Below are positions 21,769 through 47,192 of a stretch of 64,000 bases of DNA, piece after piece. Below the pieces are notes generated by a model, which searched no databases, was not told the origin of the DNA, and saw nothing but the letters and a program-made list of their open reading frames with translations. Origin of the DNA: Candidatus Hydrogenedentota bacterium (GTDB taxonomy: Bacteria > Hydrogenedentota > Hydrogenedentia > Hydrogenedentales > SLHB01); contig BTWA01000004.1 of assembly GCA_045863295.1 (NCBI GenBank), positions 1-64,000 on the forward strand. The letters run 5' to 3'. Within the stretch, counting starts at the first letter, position 1, and every line of letters begins with the position of its first letter. Position numbers and translations under genes: made by a program.

Positions 21769-23295
21769 TTGAGTGAGAAGGAAGCCACATTGGTCGTGAC
21801 CTGCTCGTGCGGGCAAAAGATGAAAGTTGCCGAGGAAGCCCGGGGCAAGTCGATCAAGTGTTTGCGATGCGGAGCGGCGGTGCCGGTGGATGCGGCGCAC
21901 CAAGCCGTGGCAAGCGCGACGTCAGCCAAGAGTGGCGCCGCGCATCAATGGAGCCGGGTAGTTTCGGTATTAACCGAAGAAGGCCTGGTAAACGACGCGC
22001 AATTGGGCGAGGCGCTGGGCAAGTGCGTTCCGGAATCGGTCGGACTGTTTCAGGCCTTGGTGGACCTGGGCCACCTCGACGCGGCGGCCTTTCATCAGTC
22101 CGCGTCGAAGCAACACGGCATCGCGAGCATTGACATTGCGAATTACCAGGTGGCCAAGGATTTGCTCGCGCTGGTGCCCTCGAGTTTCGCCAGGGAACGG
22201 TTGGTTGTGCCGATTGACAAGCTTGGCCGCCTGTTGACCGTGGGAATGGCGTGTCCCCTGGATCAGGGCAGCCTCGAAGAACTGACTGCATCCACAGGGC
22301 TGCGCGTGAAACCCATGCTCTGTAAGTACGAAGATCTGGTTTCGGCTTTGCACAAGTACTATCCCGAATCCGCGCTGGAAAAGGAACAGTCGGTCCTCTC
22401 GTTGGAGACGTTCGGGTTGGCGCCCGTACCCGACAAGAAGAAGCCGGCCGCACCCGAAGTCAAAGCCGTCGCGAAACCCGGCGAAGCAGAGGCGGGGATA
22501 CGCCAGATTTCCGCGTTGCCGATAGCGCCCGATACGCTGGCCAGACTGGAAGCGGCGGAACGGGACGGTCAAACCGGTGTGCGTCGTATCGTTCATATCG
22601 TGCAACAAGATCCGGCGCTGGCCTTTGTACTGGTCGCTTACGCAAATCTGCCTGTGTTCGGCTCGCCGGGGAAGATGGCCGGACTGACGGCCGCCGTCAC
22701 GCTACTGGGTGCGGAAGGCGTCAAAACGGTTGCCCGGTCAGCGGGGAATTCCGATGAACTCGGCGACGCATGGGACTGGCCTTCGTTTGTAAAACGCGGC
22801 ACCTTCGCAGCGTGCGCGGCCGCCGAGCTGGCTTCGGACGGAGGCAAAATGGATCCGGATTCGGCTTGCATGGGCGGACTCGTGCATGAGACCGGCCGGC
22901 TCGCGCTTGCAATGGTAATGGGGGATCGGTTTCAATCCGCGCCTGAATCCATGGATCACGCGGCGCTGTGCGCCACGGAGGATCAGTTGTATGCGTTGAA
23001 TCACGGCCAGGCGGGGTATCTGCTGGCGCAGCGGTGGGGATTTCCGAACGGTCTCCCCGAAGCGATCCGGTTTCACGGAAATCCGGCAGCCACAAAAGAG
23101 TCGCGCGATTTCGTGAATCTGGTGGCGCTGGCTGCCGCGATGGCGGAAGCTTTCCTTGCGCAAGGGGAACAACGTACCGCGGCGCTGAAACGATGTGAGC
23201 CGCTATTGGCGCCGTCCGGAGCGGAGACGCGCGACATCCGCCTGCTGTTCGATCGGTCGATGGCGGCCTACGCGCGGGTGACCGAAGGAAACTGA
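21769..23295 (+). CDS. Zn-ribbon + MshEN/T2SSE-N + HDOD domain protein
   Basis: CSCG...CLRCG; 'VPIDKLGRLLTVGMACPLD'; HDOD motifs QDPALA..AN, GLVHETGRL, NHGQAG.LLAQRWGFP, IRFH. Confidence 0.8.
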   Translation: MSEKEATLVVTCSCGQKMKVAEEARGKSIKCLRCGAAVPVDAAHQAVASATSAKSGAAHQWSRVVSVLTEEGLVNDAQLGEALGKCVPESVGLFQALVDLGHLDAAAFHQSASKQHGIASIDIANYQVAKDLLALVPSSFARERLVVPIDKLGRLLTVGMACPLDQGSLEELTASTGLRVKPMLCKYEDLVSALHKYYPESALEKEQSVLSLETFGLAPVPDKKKPAAPEVKAVAKPGEAEAGIRQISALPIAPDTLARLEAAERDGQTGVRRIVHIVQQDPALAFVLVAYANLPVFGSPGKMAGLTAAVTLLGAEGVKTVARSAGNSDELGDAWDWPSFVKRGTFAACAAAELASDGGKMDPDSACMGGLVHETGRLALAMVMGDRFQSAPESMDHAALCATEDQLYALNHGQAGYLLAQRWGFPNGLPEAIRFHGNPAATKESRDFVNLVALAAAMAEAFLAQGEQRTAALKRCEPLLAPSGAETRDIRLLFDRSMAAYARVTEGN

Positions 23296-26379: not shown

Positions 26380-29300
26380 TTACTCCTTGGAATCGAGCGC
26401 GGGTTCCGGTTCCGCCTCTGCGGCCGCCAACTCGGCGTACATCAGGCCAACGTCGTAGCGGGCCTTTCCGGCCGCCGCGATGACGCGCTGCGTCCATCCG
26501 AATTCGTCGACCATGACGGCGAGGGCGGTGTCGGTGGGAAAGCGGTGGTCCGCGAACACATGTACGACTTCCGCGAGCAATCGCCAATACAGGTAGGTGG
26601 CCAGTTGCTCTTTGACAATGTAATCATGGCCTTGGTGGTGATTAAGACCGAGGAACCGCCGGACGGGTTCAGGCTCTATCAATTTTCTAAACCGGCTGAC
26701 GTCCTCGTCCAAGGCGGTGATTTCGCCCTCGTGGGTATCCAACAGCAATTTCACGAGCGCCGCGTCTTCATGGGCCTGCCACCACTCACGGCCCATGTCG
26801 TGAAACGCGGCGACGACGCGATCGGAGAGCAGCCACTCTTCGAGCCAATTGGGATGGCCGGCCTTCTTGAGAATCCGGTCCAATGGCTTGAGAAGCGTCC
26901 ACGCGGTGATGATACGCCAGTTGTATCCCAGCGTGACGGTGGAATCCTGGATGCGTTCGAGGAAACATGCGGCGACATCATCCGGAACGCCGACCGCCTT
27001 GAGATTGCCGGGCAGTTCCATGGCGGCATCCATGTATTCGCGCGCGTCGGGCCCTTCGCCTTGGGCGTCCAGCGAAAAGCCCGCGATTTGGCTGAACAGC
27101 AGTGTGAAGGCTTGCATGTCGACTTCCGCGCTTTCGCGGCGGTCTTCGCGTTCCTCTTCGCTGTAGTCGGAGTCCATGAGGCCGGTAAGCGTTGCGGCAT
27201 TGAATACGGCACGAAAGGCGTCAAGCAAGGGTTCGAGCATCAGTTCGCGTCGTTCCCTGTCGATGCTGGGCGTTCCGCGCCCGTCGAGTTTCGCGGCAAG
27301 TCTGGCCCACGTTCCGTCCGTATCTTCGACCTCGCGGAAGTCAAGCAACGCATAATACTGGTAGCCATGCAATTGAAAGAAAAGGCCCTCGTCGCGGATC
27401 TTCCTTCCTTCTCGAATGTAGTCGAGTCCTTCGCGATGATCGCGGTAGACACAATACCAGTTGGCCTCGCTTCGTATACCCAACGCGTCCGCGAGCGGGG
27501 AGCTGACCAGGTTGGGAGAATCGGCGCTGCCCTTGTTGATCGGCGTTGATCCCTTAATCCAGCCCTGCGTCGTGTTGTAGGCGTTGTTGTACAGAAACAA
27601 CGAGCGCTCGTTCCCGTGCCGGTTTGAATAGGCGAACACATTCTCGTCGACATATCCGTGGGGCGTGTAGAAGTCGTAAAACGCAAACTGCTCGGCACTG
27701 CTGAAGAGATAGCGGCGGCGCAACAATGGAAAGATTTCGCGGTGATGGCGTTGCACAAGGCCTTCGTCCGCGGTTTCGTCCCAGTAGGCGCGCCGGTATT
27801 CCATGCCGTATTTTTCGCGCAGTCCTTCGATCTGGCCGTGACCAAACATGGGAAGGCCCGGAATCGTGGCCATCATGGCGGCGACCCCAAAGTACTTGTC
27901 GCCCACGCCGAATTGTTCCGCGGCGGTCATTTCGTCGGGGTTGTTCATGAAATTGACGAAGCGGCGCAGAATTCCTGGGCTGTATTCGATGACGTTTTTA
28001 ATGGTTTGCCGGTACTTTTGGTTCTCTTCCATTTTCATCATGTTCATGAATGCGCTGTTGTACACGCGATGCATGCCGAGCGTACGCACGAAGTAGCCTT
28101 CCATAAGCCAGAACGCTTCGGCGAGCAAAAGGGTGTCGGGGGCCTCGGCGGCCACGCGATCCACCACTTCGCGCCAGAACTCCACGGGGAAGACTTTGTC
28201 GAATTCCTCCTTGGTCATGCCGTGTTCGGCGCGGGACGGAATAGCGCCCGCATCGCCGGCCTTTGGAAACCAGAGGCGCTGATAGTGTTTCTTGGCAAGT
28301 GTCATGGCCGCGTCGAATCGGATGATGGAGAACATCCGGGCGACATGCAGAATAGTCTGGATGACGGCTTCCCGCACTTCGGGCAGGAGATAATTCAGCT
28401 GGGCGGTGTCGTTCCACGGCATGCTGGTGCCGTCGTTGCCGTGATAGATGTAGCGCGTGTCGCCGGACCATTTGTCCACCCGCTTGAACACGACCGCGGC
28501 ATCCCGCCGGTCCCAGTAACCGTCTTCGATCTGAATGGACACGCGTTCATCGCGGGACAGATTTCCTCCGCTGAAGGAATAAGACGGATACGGAGGATGA
28601 TTGAGCTGCACAAACCAGTTGGGGTGTTCGACAACCCATCGAGAATAAATGCCCATGTGGTTGGGCACCATGTCACTGGCCAGTCGAATACCTCGGCTTC
28701 GCGCGCGTTCGTTGAGGGAACGATAGGCATCGTCGCCGCCGAGGTCGGCCGCGATGGTGTAGTCAAAAAGGGAGTAGGCGGAGGCGATGGCCTCGGGGTT
28801 GCCGGTCCAGCGTTTGATGTCCTCTGAAGCTGGGGATCGTTCCCACACGCCGATGAGCCACAATCCGTTGAACCCGCGGCGTGCGAGTTGATCGAGTTCA
28901 TCGTCGGGGATCTGATCCAGGCGGTGAATGTGCCTCTGGTACTTCTTCGACAGTTGATCCAGCCACACGTAGGCGGTCTTGGCGATTAAGACGACATTGG
29001 CCATCCAGTCGGCATCGGGAGAATAGCGCTCCGGTTCGGGGTACTCGTCGAAACCGGCGGCCTTGCCGGAGCGAAAATCGAGCACGGACAGATTGGGCCC
29101 GTCGCCCATGCCGCGCGTCGCGGTTTCTTCGCGCACGATGCCTTGCACCATGAGAACGCGGCGCAACAACGATTTCGGCAACAGGCGGCCCCAGTGACGC
29201 CGGATGTACTCCAATTGATCTTCGAGGGAATCCGGACAGTTCTTCATGGGGAGTCGCAAACATTCGAACAAGGTCTCGCCGATCTCATCGACGGGGGGTT

Positions 29301-29955
29301 GGTTGGCAAAGAAGGTCTCGAAGTCGTGAATGATTTCGACGTAGGGCACTTCATGACGGAGAAGTTCGTCGTTAAAGAGCCGCACGAACGGCCGTAGCGC
29401 CGGGTTGGACATCGCCAGGCGCAACAGGATCATTTCGATGTGGGCGGTGACGCGGGCTTCCATGTCCTCGCGGGTTTTTTGCGCGAATTCGCGATCGGAA
29501 CTTCTATCGACGGCAACCGGCTCCGGTGGGAAGCGCCTGACAAACGCGCCGAGGGTGTTCTGCAATACATCGCTGGTCTTAATGGAGCGATTCCATTCCA
29601 GACACTTATCCAGAATGCCTGGGATCTGGCGCGAGACGTAGTATGCCGCGACATAGCGAAGGATGTCTGAAAGCAATCCCAAGGAGAGCAACTGCCCCGC
29701 ACCGACGTAGGGCCAGCCGTGGGTTTCCGGCGAGTCGATTTCGTTCATGGACTTTGCCAGATGGCGAATCGCACGCACTTCGTCGGGGGTACGTCCCTCC
29801 TCACCTCCTTTCAACAATTGGGCGAGCCGGTACCTTTCCCAAGCTTCCCGGCTGAGATGGAGCCCGAGTGGGCTGTAATACCGTAACCGCATTTCGAGGT
29901 CGGAAGCGTCGGACACGGAGGCGCCGACGCTGGAAATCGTTTCTTTCTCGTGCAT
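26380..29955 (-). CDS. Large GH13 alpha-amylase family protein
   Basis: DMVPNH, catalytic RFDAAM (D), AEAFW (E), NNPDE (D); 1191 aa. Confidence 0.9.
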   Translation of the reverse strand: MHEKETISSVGASVSDASDLEMRLRYYSPLGLHLSREAWERYRLAQLLKGGEEGRTPDEVRAIRHLAKSMNEIDSPETHGWPYVGAGQLLSLGLLSDILRYVAAYYVSRQIPGILDKCLEWNRSIKTSDVLQNTLGAFVRRFPPEPVAVDRSSDREFAQKTREDMEARVTAHIEMILLRLAMSNPALRPFVRLFNDELLRHEVPYVEIIHDFETFFANQPPVDEIGETLFECLRLPMKNCPDSLEDQLEYIRRHWGRLLPKSLLRRVLMVQGIVREETATRGMGDGPNLSVLDFRSGKAAGFDEYPEPERYSPDADWMANVVLIAKTAYVWLDQLSKKYQRHIHRLDQIPDDELDQLARRGFNGLWLIGVWERSPASEDIKRWTGNPEAIASAYSLFDYTIAADLGGDDAYRSLNERARSRGIRLASDMVPNHMGIYSRWVVEHPNWFVQLNHPPYPSYSFSGGNLSRDERVSIQIEDGYWDRRDAAVVFKRVDKWSGDTRYIYHGNDGTSMPWNDTAQLNYLLPEVREAVIQTILHVARMFSIIRFDAAMTLAKKHYQRLWFPKAGDAGAIPSRAEHGMTKEEFDKVFPVEFWREVVDRVAAEAPDTLLLAEAFWLMEGYFVRTLGMHRVYNSAFMNMMKMEENQKYRQTIKNVIEYSPGILRRFVNFMNNPDEMTAAEQFGVGDKYFGVAAMMATIPGLPMFGHGQIEGLREKYGMEYRRAYWDETADEGLVQRHHREIFPLLRRRYLFSSAEQFAFYDFYTPHGYVDENVFAYSNRHGNERSLFLYNNAYNTTQGWIKGSTPINKGSADSPNLVSSPLADALGIRSEANWYCVYRDHREGLDYIREGRKIRDEGLFFQLHGYQYYALLDFREVEDTDGTWARLAAKLDGRGTPSIDRERRELMLEPLLDAFRAVFNAATLTGLMDSDYSEEEREDRRESAEVDMQAFTLLFSQIAGFSLDAQGEGPDAREYMDAAMELPGNLKAVGVPDDVAACFLERIQDSTVTLGYNWRIITAWTLLKPLDRILKKAGHPNWLEEWLLSDRVVAAFHDMGREWWQAHEDAALVKLLLDTHEGEITALDEDVSRFRKLIEPEPVRRFLGLNHHQGHDYIVKEQLATYLYWRLLAEVVHVFADHRFPTDTALAVMVDEFGWTQRVIAAAGKARYDVGLMYAELAAAEAEPEPALDSKE

Positions 29956-30434
29956 TCACTTTAGCCCTATGCGAATGCGCCTCAGGCGATTCGCAAGTTT
30001 CACTCAAAGGAGAGTTTGCCCCATGGCGACGCATTCTACCTGATGAAACGGGTGGTCCTCTAACCGGGCTATTTCTAGACGATTAACCGGGCGTTTGGCC
30101 ATGGGAGTTCCGTAACCCATATGTCGGGGGCCACATATCGTCGAAGTCCATAAATGATTCGCTTCTTAATAGAGCGCACATTGTCCTGTGTGAGTCCGTA
30201 TATCGTCACGCGGCCCGTATGGGATCAATTCAGTGCGGGTGGATTCGGGGTGCCGGGTCCACCCGTCGAGACCCGCGAGAACGTGGGACTACGTACTGAC
30301 GGTGGTATGATACAGGTTGTACTTAACTAGCGGGACACACACGCTTCTAAGTGCGATGTAACCTATTCATATTGAATAGCTTATAAACAAAGCGGGCATC
30401 GGCGCATAGCTAGTAATTTGGCCGATAATTCATG

Positions 30435-30463
30435 TTGCCAAGAAATCGGGCTCCGTCTATACT
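30435..30463 (+). promoter_or_regulatory. Sigma-70 promoter of DUF1559 gene A
   Basis: TTGCCA-N17-TATACT; the same boxes occur upstream of paralog B. Confidence 0.8.
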
Positions 30464-30469
30464 TACGGT

Positions 30470-30621
30470 TACTGGTGTATTGAACTTCGGGTGTCGACAA
30501 GCAGGCTGTCGGAGAAAGGAGGGGTTTCGTAACTATCTACCGAAAGGTAGAGACCGGTGGAGGCTTTCTGCGCGTTGGTGTGTGTCGGAAAGTCGCTGCC
30601 TTTAACTGGAGTTCTAGTTTC
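30470..30621 (+). ncRNA. Candidate structured 5' leader RNA (copy A)
   Basis: Aligns with 31850-31996; CTACC-GAAA-GGTAG hairpin; orphan GAAAGGAGG. Confidence 0.5.
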
Positions 30622-31500
30622 ATGAAGAAACGCGGTTTTACTCTCATTGAATTGCTCGTAGTAATTGCAATCATTGGTATCCTTGCAGCTATCCTTCTTC
30701 CGGCTCTGGCCCGTGCCCGCGAAGCGGCGCGCCGTGCCAGTTGCCAGAACAATCTGAAGCAGATGGGCCTTGTGTTCAAGATGTACTCGAACGAGGCCTT
30801 CAATGCGTTGTACCCGGTCATGAAGCATGCGGGCGACGACCTGTGCGACAATTTCTCCCTGGGCTTCTGGTTCCAGGGCGACTTGGTCTATCCGGAATAC
30901 CTGACGGATCCGGAAATTCAGTTCTGCCCGTCCGCTCCGTTTAACGACTCCGTGGAATTTCGTTGCGGCGATGTCGAAACGAATCCCTGGTGCCCGTGCG
31001 AATTCGGTGAATCCACCTACGTGTACACGGGCTTCGCGCTTGCGCTGAAGCACTATGTGACGGCCGGTGCGAACCCGAATGCTCCGAACGGCGCTTCGTT
31101 GCTTCCGGGCTTCCTGACGGTGTCGGGCACGACGCCGACGGGCGGCGCGCTGGCGGTCTATGCGGCGACGATTGACGCGCAAACGACGCGCGCCAACGCG
31201 TTCAACCAGACCGAAAAGTCCAGCCTGAACATTGCCGGCACGGAACGCGCCGAGCGCACCCGTGAAGGCATTGAGCGGTTCTTCATCACGAACATCAACG
31301 CGGCGGCTTCGGGTTCGAAGGCGCAGAGCGAAGTGGTCGTGATGTGGGATCAGCCCAGCACGGACATCGCGGAATACAACCACGTGCCGGGCGGCTGCAA
31401 CGTGCTGTACATGGACGGCCATGTCGCGTTCCGCCGTTATCCGAGCACGGACCACCCCGTCAATGGCACGATGGCCTTCTTGAACGGCGAGATTTTCTAA
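30622..31500 (+). CDS. DUF1559 / prepilin-type N-terminal cleavage domain protein A
   Basis: [47 protein letters not shown] (H-X9-DG-type C-terminus). Confidence 0.93.
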
Positions 31501-31535
31501 TTCTCCCCGGTTGACATTTGAGTTTGTACATCAGT

Positions 31536-31574
31536 CGCGGGCCGCATTCGCAAGAATGCGGCCCGTGTTTTTTT
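31536..31574 (+). terminator. Intrinsic terminator
   Basis: GCGGGCCGCATTC-GCAA-GAATGCGGCCCGT followed by T7. Confidence 0.9.
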
Positions 31575-31814
31575 GTTAATGATTCTGTAAGAAATGCCGC
31601 TGAGTTAAGATTCGTGGGGATTGTCGTGGGTATGTAAACTGAGTCCATTTGTGGGGCATTTTTGGTGGGCCGTCCCTGGCGACAAATATGACTGAAACAC
31701 TACACTACAACTCGATATTTTAAGCCTCCTTGTCACACAAGCTGTTTATTCTGAATGGGTTATAGGCAAAGAGCGGATTCATCTTTTATTCACTATCTAC
31801 GTTAAACGAGGGTC

Positions 31815-31843
31815 TTGCCAAGAATTGATTTGCTTTATATACT
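31815..31843 (+). promoter_or_regulatory. Sigma-70 promoter of DUF1559 gene B
   Basis: TTGCCA-N17-TATACT. Confidence 0.8.
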
Positions 31844-31849
31844 GGACTT

Positions 31850-31996
31850 CCAGTGCAAGGTGGTTTCGGTGTCTATCAAGTTGGCTATCGGGAAGGGAGG
31901 GGTGTCTTAACAGCTACCTACGGGTAGAACGAGCGGCGTTCTCCACATTGGTGTGTGTGCGCGAAACGCTGTCTCTCAACTGGGAGCCTATTCATC
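31850..31996 (+). ncRNA. Candidate structured 5' leader RNA (copy B)
   Basis: CTACC-TACG-GGTAG hairpin; orphan GAAGGGAGG; homologous to leader A. Confidence 0.5.
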
Positions 31997-32875
31997 ATGA
32001 AGAAACGCGGTTTCACTTTGATCGAATTGCTCGTAGTAATAGCAATCATTGGTATCCTTGCAGCTATCCTTCTTCCGGCTCTGGCCCGTGCCCGCGAAGC
32101 GGCGCGCCGTGCCAGTTGCCAGAACAATCTGAAGCAGATGGGCCTTGTGTTCAAGATGTACTCGAACGAGGCCTTCAATGCGTTGTACCCGGTCATGAAG
32201 CATGCGGGCGACGACCTGTGCGACAATTTCTCCCTGGGCTTCTGGTTCCAGGGCGACTTGGTCTATCCGGAATACCTGACGGATCCGGAAATTCAGTTCT
32301 GCCCGTCCGCTCCGTTTAACGACTCCGTGGAATTTCGTTGCGGCGATGTCGAAACGAATCCCTGGTGCCCGTGCGAATTCGGTGAATCCACCTACGTGTA
32401 CACGGGCTTCGCGCTTGCGCTGAAGCACTATGTGACGGCCGGTGCGAACCCGAATGCTCCGAACGGCGCTTCGTTGCTTCCGGGCTTCCTGACGGTGTCG
32501 GGCACGACGCCGACGGGCGGCGCGCTGGCGGTCTATGCGGCGACGATTGACGCGCAAACGACGCGCGCCAACGCGTTCAACCAGACCGAAAAGTCCAGCC
32601 TGAACATTGCCGGCACGGAACGCGCCGAGCGCACCCGTGAAGGCATTGAGCGGTTCTTCATCACGAACATCAACGCGGCGGCTTCGGGTTCGAAGGCGCA
32701 GAGCGAAGTGGTCGTGATGTGGGATCAGCCCAGCACGGACATCGCGGAATACAACCACGTGCCGGGCGGCTGCAACGTGCTGTACATGGACGGCCATGTC
32801 GCGTTCCGCCGTTATCCGAGCACGGACCACCCCGTCAATGGAACCATGGCCTTCTTGAACGGCGACATCTTCTAA
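31997..32875 (+). CDS. DUF1559 / prepilin-type protein B (near-identical to A)
   Basis: Protein differs from A only by E/D in the third-last residue. Confidence 0.9.
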
Positions 32876-32909
32876 GATTCGTCGAGGACACGTGAAAGCA
32901 CCTGCACTG

Positions 32910-32950
32910 CGCGGGCCGCTCCCGAAGGGGATGCGGCCCGCGATTTTTTT
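32910..32950 (+). terminator. Intrinsic terminator
   Basis: CGCGGGCCGC...GCGGCCCGCG followed by T7. Confidence 0.9.
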
Positions 32951-33006
32951 GTATTGCTTCTGTCTCCGGGACGAGTATGCTGTGTGTGGCCCCCCTATTG
33001 CCAGAA

Positions 33007-33174
33007 ATGGAACCCTTGGAGACGTTTGGAATGAGTCTTCTGGAAATTTTCACCCTTGCGTATGTGAACCCGACAGAAGGTCCGTTTTCGCTGGCGGCGG
33101 CGGTATTCTTTGGGGCTTTTTGGCCTGCGATTGTCTTCATACAGTTGTTCTTTGGGCTGGCTGCCGGTCAATGA
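33007..33174 (+). CDS. Small putative membrane protein (55 aa)
   Basis: MEPLETFG...LAAAVFFGAFWPAIVFIQLFFGL hydrophobic segment; lies between a terminator and the kor promoter; start uncertain. Confidence 0.45.
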   Translation: MEPLETFGMSLLEIFTLAYVNPTEGPFSLAAAVFFGAFWPAIVFIQLFFGLAAGQ

Positions 33175-33203
33175 AGGCTCCAGGCCCGGGGATAGAATAC
33201 TCA

Positions 33204-33232
33204 TTGACGAAATCGGACTTAAGGTATAGACT
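33204..33232 (+). promoter_or_regulatory. Sigma-70 promoter of kor operon
   Basis: TTGACG-N17-TAGACT. Confidence 0.55.
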
Positions 33233-33342
33233 TTAGATATCTTTACTGCGGTAGTAAGCGGTATCGTTCGAAGTTTCGGGGGAAACCATTCGAAGGACAC
33301 GTTGCGCCCTTTGGCGTGCGTGGAGGGGGGGCCGCTCATCCA

Positions 33343-33636
33343 ATGGACGCACCATCTCGTGCGCCGAAGGATACGTCTTCGGCGCATGTGCCACACGGTC
33401 ACGTTTTCATCATTCCGAACCGGTGCAAGGGCTGCAAGTTTTGCGTCGAATTCTGCCCGACGCATGTACTGGACTACTCCGCCGAAATCAACGCCAAGGG
33501 ATACCACTATCCCGTAATTGCCGAAGGCAAGGAATTGGCGTGCGTGCACTGCAACTTCTGCGACCTTGTATGCCCTGAGATGGCGATCTTTACTCGAGAG
33601 GGCGATGCCACGGCGGTAACGGGAGGTGCATTGTGA
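33343..33636 (+). CDS. korD: 2-oxoacid:ferredoxin oxidoreductase delta subunit (2x[4Fe-4S])
   Basis: CKGCKFCVEFCP and CVHCNFCDLVCP, NAKGYHYP. Confidence 0.9.
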   Translation: MDAPSRAPKDTSSAHVPHGHVFIIPNRCKGCKFCVEFCPTHVLDYSAEINAKGYHYPVIAEGKELACVHCNFCDLVCPEMAIFTREGDATAVTGGAL

Positions 33637-34811
33637 GCGCCGCGGCGACCCCCACACCGGCGAGCACTGAACTCCGCGTGATGGCTGGAAATCACTTCAT
33701 GTTGGGCGATCACGCCTGCGCGGAAGGCGCTCTGGCCGCGGGGCTCGATTTCTTCGCGGGCTATCCCATTACACCCTCCACCGAGGTCATGGAAAGATTG
33801 GCGCACCGCTTGCCGCGCGTGGGTGGACGTTTTGTCCAGATGGAGGATGAGATAGCCAGCGTGGCGGCGATTATCGGCGCATCGGCCGCTGGAGCACGCA
33901 GCATGACAGCGACTTCGGGGCCCGGATTCAGCCTGATGATGGAGAATATCGGTCTCGCTGCGATGATGGAAGTGCCTATTGTGGTGGTGGACGTGCAGCG
34001 CGCCTCTCCTTCGACCGGTCTTCCCACGTCAGTTGGACAAGGCGATATTCTTCAGGCGCGTTGGGGTTCGCACGGCGATTATGGGGTGGTCGTCTATTGT
34101 CCTGCTTCTCCACAGGAATGCTTCGATTTGACGGTCGAAGCGTTCAATACAGCCGATCGGTATCGCGTCCCTACGTTTGTGCTCATGGACGAAATCATTG
34201 GCCACATGACCGAGCGTGTGACCATTCCGGCGGCGGAATCGATTCGCCGGATTGGCCGAAAGCGGCCACTGCAGGCACCGGGCGAGGGCGAGCATTTTCC
34301 GTATAAAGCCGACGCCGATTTGGTGCCCCCGATGGCCCACGCGGGCGAAGGGTATAAAGTGCATATGACGGGCCTGACTCACGATGAACGCGGGTATCCC
34401 GCGTTGAACGCGGCGGCGCACGAGAAGCTAATCCACCGGATAGTAGACAAAGTGCGCCTGAACGCGGCGGACATCGTCCGATACGAAGCGGTCATGGTGG
34501 ACGATGCGGAGACGGTTGTGGTGGCATTTGGGTGCACTTCTCGATCGGCGCGCCGTGCGGTTGCCATGGCGCGGGAACGCGGTGTTCGCGCGGGCTTTTT
34601 GAGGCCCATCACGGCCTGGCCATTTCCCAAGAAGGCGATACAGGATTTGGCAGGGCGTGGGGTGATGAAGCGCCTGATTGTGCCTGAGATTAATCTGGGG
34701 CAGATGGGCCGAGAGGTGGAGCGGGTGGTTTCGTTTCCAGTCCACCGTATCAACCGCGCTGGGGGTGCGATGATCACGCCGGACGTCATCCTGGAGGAGA
34801 TTCTTCGATGA
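33633..34811 (+). CDS. korA: 2-oxoacid:ferredoxin oxidoreductase alpha subunit
   Basis: AGYPITPSTE, QMEDE, TATSGPGFSLM, PSTGLPT. Confidence 0.95.
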   Translation: MSAAATPTPASTELRVMAGNHFMLGDHACAEGALAAGLDFFAGYPITPSTEVMERLAHRLPRVGGRFVQMEDEIASVAAIIGASAAGARSMTATSGPGFSLMMENIGLAAMMEVPIVVVDVQRASPSTGLPTSVGQGDILQARWGSHGDYGVVVYCPASPQECFDLTVEAFNTADRYRVPTFVLMDEIIGHMTERVTIPAAESIRRIGRKRPLQAPGEGEHFPYKADADLVPPMAHAGEGYKVHMTGLTHDERGYPALNAAAHEKLIHRIVDKVRLNAADIVRYEAVMVDDAETVVVAFGCTSRSARRAVAMARERGVRAGFLRPITAWPFPKKAIQDLAGRGVMKRLIVPEINLGQMGREVERVVSFPVHRINRAGGAMITPDVILEEILR

Positions 34812-46217: not shown

Positions 46218-47192
46218 ATGAGATCACGAGAGCGAGGGTTCACCCTCATCGAGCTTCTTGTAGTAATCGCGATCATTGGCATCCTTGCCGCTATTTTGCT
46301 TCCCGCCCTTGCACGAGCGCGCGAAGCTGCGCGTCGTGCGTCTTGTCAGAACAATCTCAAACAATTTGGCTTGATACATAAGATGTTTGCTGACGAACAC
46401 AAGGGTCTGTGGGTTGGGCGGCCGGTGCGCTACGACGGCAACTTCGCGGCGGACGGATCGAACCGCGTGTGGCACGGATTCAACGCGCCCGAGTTGCACC
46501 CAGAATATCTAACGGATCTGAATATCATGTTCTGTCCTTCGGATTCATCGAGTCCGAATCAGACATTGCAGAATTATCTCATTTCGAGCGATCAGGGCGG
46601 TATCCTTCGGCGCGTAGGCACAGGGTGGAACACCCCCGCAGCCCAACCCAACCCTGTGGCCACGTTCACTTCAATGGCGAGCCATAACGATTGCAACACA
46701 CAACCGGCCAACTGCTGGATCATGGGCTACGATTGGTCCTATGCGTACTGGGCGGTCATGATCGATCCGGCTTGGGTGGCGAGCCCGCTGGATTCGGCGG
46801 CCATGTTTAACTACCTGCATGACGGCAGCGTGAACGGCATGGGCCGTTATTCAAAGTTATACGAAGACGGTGAGATCGCCCTGCCGGCATTCGGGCAGAC
46901 GGTCGATGTTCACCACTTGAAGGAAGGCATCGAACGTTTCCTTATCACGGACATCAACAACCCGGGCGCGTCGACCAAGTCGCAGTCGACGATAATTGCG
47001 ATGTGGGACACCATACGTACCCGGTCGAACAACGCGGTGTTTGCTGACGACTTCAGCCACGTGCCCGGTGGCGCCAATGTGCTCTTTATGGATGGGCACG
47101 TGGAGTTCGCAAAGTTCCCGCAAAGCACGGGATCGAAAATGTGGATTGCCACGACGGAGATTCTGACGGACGGCGTTGAATATTCGCCGTGA
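46218..47192 (+). CDS. DUF1559 / prepilin-type protein C
   Basis: [56 protein letters not shown]. Confidence 0.93.

Follow-up and report, generated by a model that had tools for sequence, protein, structure and literature searches.

A stabiliser of messenger RNA (mRNA) in the 5′ untranslated region (UTR) of Escherichia coli ompA is reportedly the subject of work by Emory, Bouvet and Belasco in 1992 and by Arnold, Yu and Belasco in 1998, and the control of flagellin (hag) mRNA by CsrA and FliW in Bacillus subtilis was reportedly described by Mukherjee et al. in 2011. A further leader element, STAB-SD, is said to have been studied by Agaisse and Lereclus in 1996 and by Mathy et al. in 2007. In one account, this Shine-Dalgarno-like box in the 5′ UTR of cry3A initiates no translation; it is bound by the 30S subunit and, by stopping RNase J1, makes the mRNA more stable (PMC4113751). 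Here we analysed a stretch of 64,000 nucleotides (nt) from a Candidatus Hydrogenedentota bacterium (contig BTWA01000004.1 of assembly GCA_045863295.1, positions 1 to 64,000; the window, below), in which two tandem genes on the + strand, copies A and B, encode prepilin-like proteins of the DUF1559 family and are each preceded by a long leader. Both leaders contain a box resembling a Shine-Dalgarno sequence that lies far from the start codon, which we call the orphan box, followed by two hairpins, P3 and P4.

We tentatively read this leader as a lineage-private, constitutive 5′-UTR module that sets mRNA lifetime, translation yield or both for a highly expressed structural protein. Each copy would be its own transcription unit, consisting of a sigma-70-like promoter, a 5′ UTR of about 135–150 nt, the coding sequence and an intrinsic terminator. 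In both UTRs an orphan box about 100 nt before the start codon is followed, in fixed order, by P3, with an extra-stable tetraloop, and by P4, with 17–18 base pairs. The box would dock a 30S subunit (or a protein) without a translation start, and P3 and P4, selected only for stable folding, would serve as spacers that place the box no more than about 24 single-stranded nt from the true start region. The more general, testable lead is the recurring orphan box, not the hairpin module.

A transcribed leader constrained beside an identical coding core

Upstream of both genes we found promoter-like boxes TTGCCA and TATACT separated by a 17-nt spacer, at 30435–30463 for copy A and 31815–31843 for copy B, both on the + strand and each with 10 of 12 matches. 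They begin 187 nt (A) and 182 nt (B) before the ATG, as had been stated in an earlier reading of the bare letters (the sequence-only reading). The hexamers are the same in the two copies, and the spacer has diverged except for its first four bases. The position of the −10 box puts the 5′ UTRs at 30470–30621 (A) and 31850–31996 (B), on the + strand. Contigs assembled from RNA libraries cover much of both: leader contigs are present in three libraries from two studies (X5, X8 and X17), and those of X5, at 30488–30680 and 31867–32010, span the orphan box as well as P3 and P4 in each copy. Library X8 contributed contigs at 30545–30678 and at 31942–31994, the latter joined to coding sequence, and X17 one at 31947–31994, likewise joined to coding sequence. 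The sequence-only reading had named a transcription start downstream of the hairpins as an outcome that would count against it; the RNA-library contigs include the hairpins, although contigs cannot show 5′ ends. For this reason the starts near 30470 and 31850 remain an inference from the −10 box.

The longest RNA contigs begin at aligned positions, 30488 in A and 31867 in B, an agreement that comes from one run and may reflect low depth. Neither 30200–30443 nor 31542–31846 carries an RNA contig, and DNA run X2 covers 30361–30595 and 31595–31875; we did not use these gaps as evidence for transcript ends. Both leaders are free of sequence variants in X2, so this run yields no strain covariation data. 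At the other end of each unit an intrinsic terminator lies on the + strand, at 31536–31576 in copy A (a 14-pair stem, loop GCAA and a U run; z-score −6.86) and at 32910–32950 in copy B (a stem with one bulge, loop GAAG and a U run; z-score −5.02). The lower stems of the two terminators are preserved, compensatory changes distinguish the upper stems (ATTC/GAAT versus TCCC/GGGA), and both loops are closed by C-G. This pair provided a built-in positive control for the hairpin analysis below.

When the two units are aligned, the coding core at 30667–31466 is 100% identical to that at 32042–32841 over 800 nt. All nine coding differences, eight of them synonymous, are confined to the 45 nt at the beginning and the 34 nt at the end of the coding sequence. 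Such an identical core inside diverged units points to recent gene conversion within an old tandem duplication. The leaders have diverged yet still align, as first proposed, with 101 of 148 ungapped columns identical (68%). Elsewhere outside the core, the terminator has 76% identity, the DNA upstream of the −35 box 47%, and the 3′ flanks have 32% and 39%. Within the leader, identity peaks at the orphan AGGAGG-like box and at the P4 apex, and it is lower next to the coding sequence than in mid-leader (the final two windows of 20 columns each have 12 of 19 identical). Because identity falls rather than rises towards the coding sequence, a simple conversion gradient does not explain the similarity of the leaders; and because the flanks have decayed to 32–47% while the leader stays at 68%, the leader appears to be constrained at this locus. 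The locus thus offers a clean natural experiment: conversion has removed every difference from the coding core, but the promoter, leader and terminator have gone on evolving, and constraint on the non-coding parts can therefore be read directly.

Two hairpins that look maintained by selection on RNA folding

In the predicted ensembles, no helices other than P3 and P4 have a high pair probability in both copies. P3 (+ strand) reads UCUACC-GAAA-GGUAGA at 30536–30551 in copy A, with a mean pair probability of 0.91, and CUACC-UACG-GGUAG at 31914–31927 in copy B, with a mean of 0.77; the stem is the same in both. The sequence-only reading was right that CTACC/GGTAG is kept while the loop changes from GAAA (30537–30550) to TACG (31914–31927), three of the four loop letters being different. 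P4 (+ strand) has 18 pairs and the loop UUGGUG at 30556–30600 in copy A (mean pair probability 0.96), and 17 pairs at 31931–31975 in copy B (0.84), where the apex is as in A and the lower stem is shifted in register beside a 4-nt deletion. Of the 18 P4 pairs of copy A, 10 stand in the same alignment columns in copy B; we saw one exchange of G-C for C-G and four changes on one side of a pair only. The 3′ end of P4 lies 7 nt before the likely Shine-Dalgarno sequence GGAG (30608–30611 in A, 10 nt before the ATG; 31983–31986 in B; both +), and AGGAG or GGAG stands at a similar place in other DUF1559 genes of the genome.

Smaller pairings that had been drawn from the letters fit into this picture to differing degrees. 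The proposed pairing of CGCG (A) or CACA (B) with TGTG is present and forms the apical part of the longer P4 hairpin, two G-U pairs having become A-U. An AGA...TTCT stem can likewise be drawn in the leaders, but it is in competition with P4, the hairpin that prevails in the predicted ensemble at the probabilities given above. The motif GGTGT does occur three times per leader, at homologous positions for two of the three sites only; in 5000 mononucleotide shuffles it appeared on average 0.44 times (A) and 0.31 times (B), and at least three times in 0.6% and 0.3% of them, respectively.

The 70-nt P3+P4 module of copy A has a folding energy of −30.8 kcal/mol (z-score −4.24), and none of 200 dinucleotide shuffles was as stable; for copy B the values are −26.7 kcal/mol and −2.71, with 2 of 200 shuffles as stable. 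We then placed the observed number of substitutions at random and counted the trials with a fold as stable as the real one. For P3, stability was retained in 9 of 2000 trials from A to B and 20 of 2000 from B to A, for P4 in 66 of 2000 and 13 of 2000, and for P3 and P4 together in 9 of 1000 and 4 of 1000. The terminator, as positive control, gave 0 of 2000 in both directions. No significant result was obtained for the P2 region at 30494–30512 (531/2000 from A to B and 163/2000 from B to A), for the control upstream of the −35 box (958/1000 and 476/1000) or for the control in the 5′ part of the leader (267/1000 and 706/1000). The sense strand of P4 folds with −22.5 kcal/mol in A and −19.3 in B, the antisense strand with −6.4 and −14.3, and G-U pairs are involved; this strand specificity favours an RNA over a DNA palindrome. 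Together, these predictions make P3 and P4 look maintained by selection on sense-strand RNA folding.

GAAA and UACG loops closed by C-G both carry a stability bonus in nearest-neighbour tables. The premise that interchange between such tetraloops marks structured RNA needs narrowing: it marks hairpins selected for stability, but neither a riboswitch nor a recognition loop. Because the terminator loops swap likewise, GCAA in one copy versus GAAG in the other, we regard the P3 swap as a product of selection for stable hairpins at this locus. A loop change over a fixed stem argues for stability and against a loop that is recognised by its sequence.

An orphan Shine-Dalgarno-like box recurs in DUF1559 leaders

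The orphan box reads GAAAGGAGG at 30514–30522 of copy A, 100–108 nt before the ATG, where it is predicted to be mostly unpaired (0.82), and GAAGGGAGG at the aligned position 31892–31900 of copy B, both on the + strand. Both versions fit the canonical anti-Shine-Dalgarno sequence, from which the organism's own may differ (its 16S is not in the assembly). A sequence scan found no ATG, GTG or TTG 3–13 nt after the box in leader A or B. The box lies about 26–47 nt from the likely 5′ end, at about +45 if counted from 30470 and 26 nt in if counted from the RNA-contig start at 30488. We also considered an upstream open reading frame (ORF) or two-codon mini-gene and rejected it: leader A offers GTT-TCG-TAA, which has no start codon, and leader B offers GTG-TCT-TAA directly after the box, but with the GTG only 1 nt from GGAGG. 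In the other leaders no consistent ORF follows the orphan box.

Leaders of relatives show similar boxes, often GAAAGGAGGTG, at about −80 to −130. We counted 7-mers of AAGGAGGTGA between −160 and −40, with a motif set that was fixed after the discovery set had been seen and a replication set that was fetched separately. In the discovery set (161 leaders, 135 clusters), 17 of the 135 non-redundant leaders had such a 7-mer on the sense strand and 4 on the antisense strand; 200 shuffles averaged 4.3 and never exceeded 11, and 3 leaders had a sense match between −260 and −160. In the replication set (89 clusters, same motif set) the counts were 14 leaders on the sense and 2 on the antisense strand; 200 shuffles averaged 2.6 and never exceeded 8, and 2 leaders had a sense match between −260 and −160. 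As background, among 1303 other genes of this genome with an ORF-free upstream region, 18 had a sense and 16 an antisense match. For the replication, 100 of the 150 DUF1559 matches listed in five other genomes were taken in listing order, each with a match beginning at profile position 2 and a long open frame (40 from G010, 30 from G051, 10 from G047, 17 from G076 and 3 from G015); 95 leaders could be extracted, and 2 that were redundant with the discovery set were dropped, which gave the 89 clusters. The orphan box is thus genuinely recurrent, at about 13–16% of the DUF1559 leaders in this order.

The boxes of copies A and B stand at the modal position of DUF1559 leader boxes, and in other leaders the box extends as GGAGGTG. 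Among 18 listed leaders, the box itself was read in about 13, and 10 of these boxes have no start codon 3–13 nt downstream; in the remaining 5 the script that looked for start codons stopped at an earlier GGAGG. A third DUF1559 gene of the window, at 46218–47192 (+), has an orphan box of its own, GGGAAAGGAGGAC, about 146 nt before its ATG.

In four other DUF1559 leaders (L172, L234, L248 and L275) and in that of the gene at 99006 on contig C19, the box pairs, in a small predicted hairpin, with an upstream pyrimidine run that resembles an anti-Shine-Dalgarno sequence, the run forming the 5′ side and the box the 3′ side; UUCC-GAAA-GGAG is an example of such a box-masking hairpin in DUF1559 leaders. 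The leaders of the closest protein relatives (L100, 26–100, and L101, about 1130–1200) contain an 11-nt perfect Shine-Dalgarno complement, AAGGAGGTGAT, which is followed after 2 nt by an ATG. This ATG opens a frame of 24 or 22 codons, the two being separated by an in-frame indel of 6 nt, and the frame may be a leader peptide or chance.

A broader proposal would join the orphan box to lineage-specific hairpins as an undescribed, widespread control of pilin-like genes across several families of the order, with the box as a dock for the 30S subunit or for a dedicated RNA-binding protein, kept beside the true start site by hairpins such as P3 and P4; we put this forward as a speculation that is unlikely to be correct in full. 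If true, docking at the box would tie how much of these abundant DUF1559 proteins is made to the supply of ribosomes or to the assembly of filaments. Few families in Planctomycetota-like and candidate phyla are as expanded and as poorly understood as the DUF1559 / H-X9-DG prepilin-like proteins, and in the literature naming DUF1559, judged by title and abstract, we found no work on their leaders. Long transcribed leaders, predicted selection on folding at this locus and a box about 100 nt upstream in two independent sets would provide a first handle on DUF1559 expression.

The hairpin module is private to one genome

A scan of 29000–34000 on both strands against Rfam release 15, with E up to 10, gave no relevant match; the sole match, AS-traI at 20.8 bits (gathering score 99), lies inside coding sequence and is due to chance. 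The observation that the leader matches no known riboswitch is thus borne out. In a BLAST search of the whole genome the leaders found each other only (74% over 124 nt) in addition to chance matches of 15–20 nt, and by eye they resemble none of 20 other DUF1559 leaders of the genome. A DNA search of 60 related genomes returned nothing better than E 0.09, with matches of 12–20 nt on either strand and none before a prepilin gene. The covariance model R1, which represents the leader core, matched just the two copies in their own genome; in 53 same-family genomes it gave two matches with E 0.7–0.8, neither before a prepilin gene and one of them terminator-like; and it matched none of the 156 loci (79 + 77) of the closest protein relatives from genomes and metagenomes, among which the best protein identities are 46–55%.

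A third paralog in the genome is instructive here. On contig C2 (gene start 216020, − strand), it encodes a protein 91% identical to those of the pair from coding DNA that is 84% identical, and the similarity begins and ends with the coding sequence, the leader being unrelated. The idea of an element of DUF1559 leaders generally therefore had to be abandoned, since BLAST, the 20 leaders and the covariance model disclosed no copy beyond the pair and this close paralog has another leader. The sequence-only reading had itself named a lack of further homologs and of significant covariation as the outcome that would tell against it, and that is what we found. What survives of its post-transcriptional control element is a transcribed, constrained and structured leader, but one that is private to the tandem pair instead of belonging to the DUF1559 family. 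The hairpin module is confined to one genome, and as an RNA family it is not validatable by covariation at present.

Another DUF1559 pair, on contig C19 (97505 and 99006, − strand), has a different common leader motif, an operator-like palindrome, GGTTATCGATAACC / GGTTATCAATAAACC. It stands just after a promoter-like −10 box, and the word GGCGCAAC follows further on.

Evidence against the proposed module and alternative explanations

Several observations weigh against a module that sets mRNA lifetime or translation yield. Folding statistics for the whole leader are ordinary (z-scores −1.44 for A and 0.00 for B), and the RNAalifold consensus, at −21.7 kcal/mol, is far weaker than the single folds at −51.1 and −47.3 kcal/mol. 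With two sequences only, covariation by column falls short of significance (the observed value is reached in 262 of 500 shuffles), and the windows of the P3+P4 tests were picked after the folds had been seen, which makes these tests supportive and not conclusive. The RNA runs consist of assembled contigs, blind to 5′ ends, and RNA libraries can contain DNA. The 91%-identical paralog does without this leader, which is therefore dispensable for the protein. The 3′ end of 16S rRNA was not found in the 88 contigs, so that the anti-Shine-Dalgarno fit of the box rests on the canonical sequence. RNase J was not found in the 96% complete assembly, where the best match to TIGR00649 has 45.7 bits against a cut-off of 400. 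The base pairing that obstructs RNase E is described as coaxial with its path (PMC9943677), and by that description P3 and P4, as side hairpins, would be weak obstacles. In favour of the module, the same source has scanning by RNase E from the 5′ end impeded by bound ribosomes or proteins (PMC9943677), and RNase E/G is encoded in this genome.

The wider set of leaders likewise lends no support to the simplest form of docking. We rejected a generally exposed standby site, since the mean unpaired probability of the box was 0.36 versus 0.44 for the rest of the leader and 10 of 32 boxes lay above their leader's mean, and we rejected generally structured box leaders, the stretch after the box having a mean z-score of −0.19 (n = 31) versus −0.48 in 60 box-free leaders. 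In several DUF1559 leaders, as far as the predicted folds go, the orphan box may be masked rather than exposed, which weighs against the simple reading.

The features of the leader could instead belong to a regulated translational switch, in which the upstream leader would occlude the ribosome-binding site by pairing, an RNA-binding protein such as CsrA would bridge the orphan box and the Shine-Dalgarno sequence through the GGA that each contains, or both, while P3 and P4 shorten the distance between the two sites. We consider such a switch unlikely. The GGAG before each ATG is indeed predicted to be mostly paired in both leaders, but its partners (30485–30488 in A; 31847–31850 or 31885–31888 in B) are non-homologous between the copies and depend on the 5′ end. 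Folding of P3 and P4 leaves no more than about 13 + 4 + 7 single-stranded nt between the orphan box and the Shine-Dalgarno sequence, and GGA occurs five times in leader A and four times in leader B, where one at 31844 lies upstream of the presumed start and three remain in the transcribed leader. A GGA lies over the Shine-Dalgarno sequence and another in the orphan box; neither the P3 loop (GAAA/UACG) nor the P4 loop (UUGGUG) has one, whereas CsrA sites are usually displayed in hairpin loops. CsrA is encoded in the genome (91.7 bits), but its gene adjoins that of FliW on contig C46 (30925–31477, +), the arrangement used for flagellin control in Bacillus, and the GGAGGTG extension of the box fits the 3′ end of 16S rRNA better than it fits a CsrA site. 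A less elaborate account would see in the leader a functionless remnant of the old tandem duplication, perhaps refreshed by older conversion tracts, with hairpins that arose by chance in sequence rich in G and U. The existence of two copies only, with no homolog anywhere searched, agrees with this, as do the longest identical run of 11 nt, which is about what 68% identity over 150 columns would give, the ordinary whole-leader z-scores and the choice of windows after folding. A remnant is nonetheless distinctly unlikely in our view: the leader has stayed at 68% identity next to flanks at 32–47%, with its lower identity beside the coding sequence, opposite to a conversion gradient; the stability of P3+P4 is strand-specific and was retained in few of the random trials in either direction, with z-scores well below those of the whole leader; and the orphan box occupies the modal position of boxes in other DUF1559 leaders.

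Riboswitches are known before pilin genes, for example those of the cyclic di-GMP (c-di-GMP) classes, and a leader that is long and transcribed, has stable hairpins and matches nothing in Rfam might suggest a ligand-sensing riboswitch or a family-wide cis-regulatory RNA of DUF1559 genes. There is, however, no conserved aptamer, and no match in the other DUF1559 genes of the genome, in the 53 same-family genomes or in the 156 related loci; the register of the lower P4 stem differs from one copy to the other; and beyond the P4 apex we saw no junction or internal loop with conserved unpaired nucleotides. A terminator scan found no terminator-like site within either leader, and neither has the hairpin and U run of an intrinsic attenuator, the sequence after P4 being UUUAAC in A and UCUCAAC in B. 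Either form of this proposal is therefore very unlikely. That CTACC-N4-GGTAG is a DNA operator, where a dimeric transcription factor would block elongation, is if anything harder still to credit. The palindrome is perfect in both copies and variable at its centre, as operators allow, but its 5 sites in 6.3 Mb fall within the 1–12 of composition-matched control palindromes, no other copy was seen near a DUF1559 gene, and the flanks of the 3 other sites are unlike these leaders. It also lies about 65 nt downstream of the presumed transcription start, no regulator gene adjoins the pair in the gene neighbourhood of the window, and the adjoining P4 is G-U dependent and strand-specific.

Gene products and genomic setting

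Copy A occupies 30622–31500 (+) and copy B 31997–32875 (+), with ATG at 30622 and 31997 and stop at 31500 and 32875. Each encodes 292 residues, and E290D is the sole residue that differs between them. The copy A protein, a prepilin-type / DUF1559 / H-X9-DG protein, matches Pfam N_methyl (PF07963, 37.2 bits) and SBP_bac_10 (PF07596, 44.4 bits) and NCBIfam TIGR02532 (37.5 bits) and TIGR04294 (25.6 bits), all above their cut-offs. Both proteins thus have the N-terminal cleavage/methylation motif, the DUF1559 region and the C-terminal H-X9-DG motif of the family.

The upstream neighbour of the pair is a divergent gene for an alpha-amylase-family protein of 1191 residues, and genes for a 2-oxoacid:ferredoxin oxidoreductase lie downstream. 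The assembly comprises 6.3 Mb in 88 contigs, is 96% complete and contains about 24 DUF1559 genes. About 7 kb upstream of the pilin-like genes, MshEN, a c-di-GMP-binding domain of pilus ATPases, occurs together with an HDOD domain in one protein of 508 residues (21769–23295, +).

Comparison with known systems

The leader shares with the STAB-SD of Bacillus thuringiensis cry3A a strong box that lies about 100–130 nt upstream of the start codon and has none of its own, and the cry3A leader, to which we liken the present one, also precedes a very highly expressed structural protein. The cry3A box presumably has the same nine letters as the box of leader A. In contrast, the cry3A box is near the 5′ end of the processed mRNA and blocks RNase J1, whereas the box here lies some way in from the likely 5′ end in a genome where RNase J was not found; the organism also belongs to another phylum.

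The resemblance to the ompA stabiliser lies in a UTR of about 130–150 nt, in hairpins and single-stranded segments before the ribosome-binding site, in a monocistronic mRNA and in an abundant envelope protein, and the organism has RNase E/G. Unlike in ompA, where the key hairpin is at the extreme 5′ end, the well-supported hairpins here are in the middle and 3′ part of the leader. CsrA–FliW control of hag likewise acts on the translation of a filament subunit, by way of one GGA-containing site that covers the Shine-Dalgarno sequence and another upstream of it, and the present genome has genes for both proteins; unlike in hag, no hairpin loop displays GGA, the sites are about 88 nt apart in sequence, and CsrA binding is hypothetical. 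With the leader families of Rfam, riboswitches included, the module has in common its position in a long 5′ UTR and its stable hairpins, but it differs from them in its lack of an Rfam match and in a conservation confined to two copies. On the tentative reading given above, the module resembles 5′-UTR stabilisers such as STAB-SD or the ompA leader and is not a ligand riboswitch.

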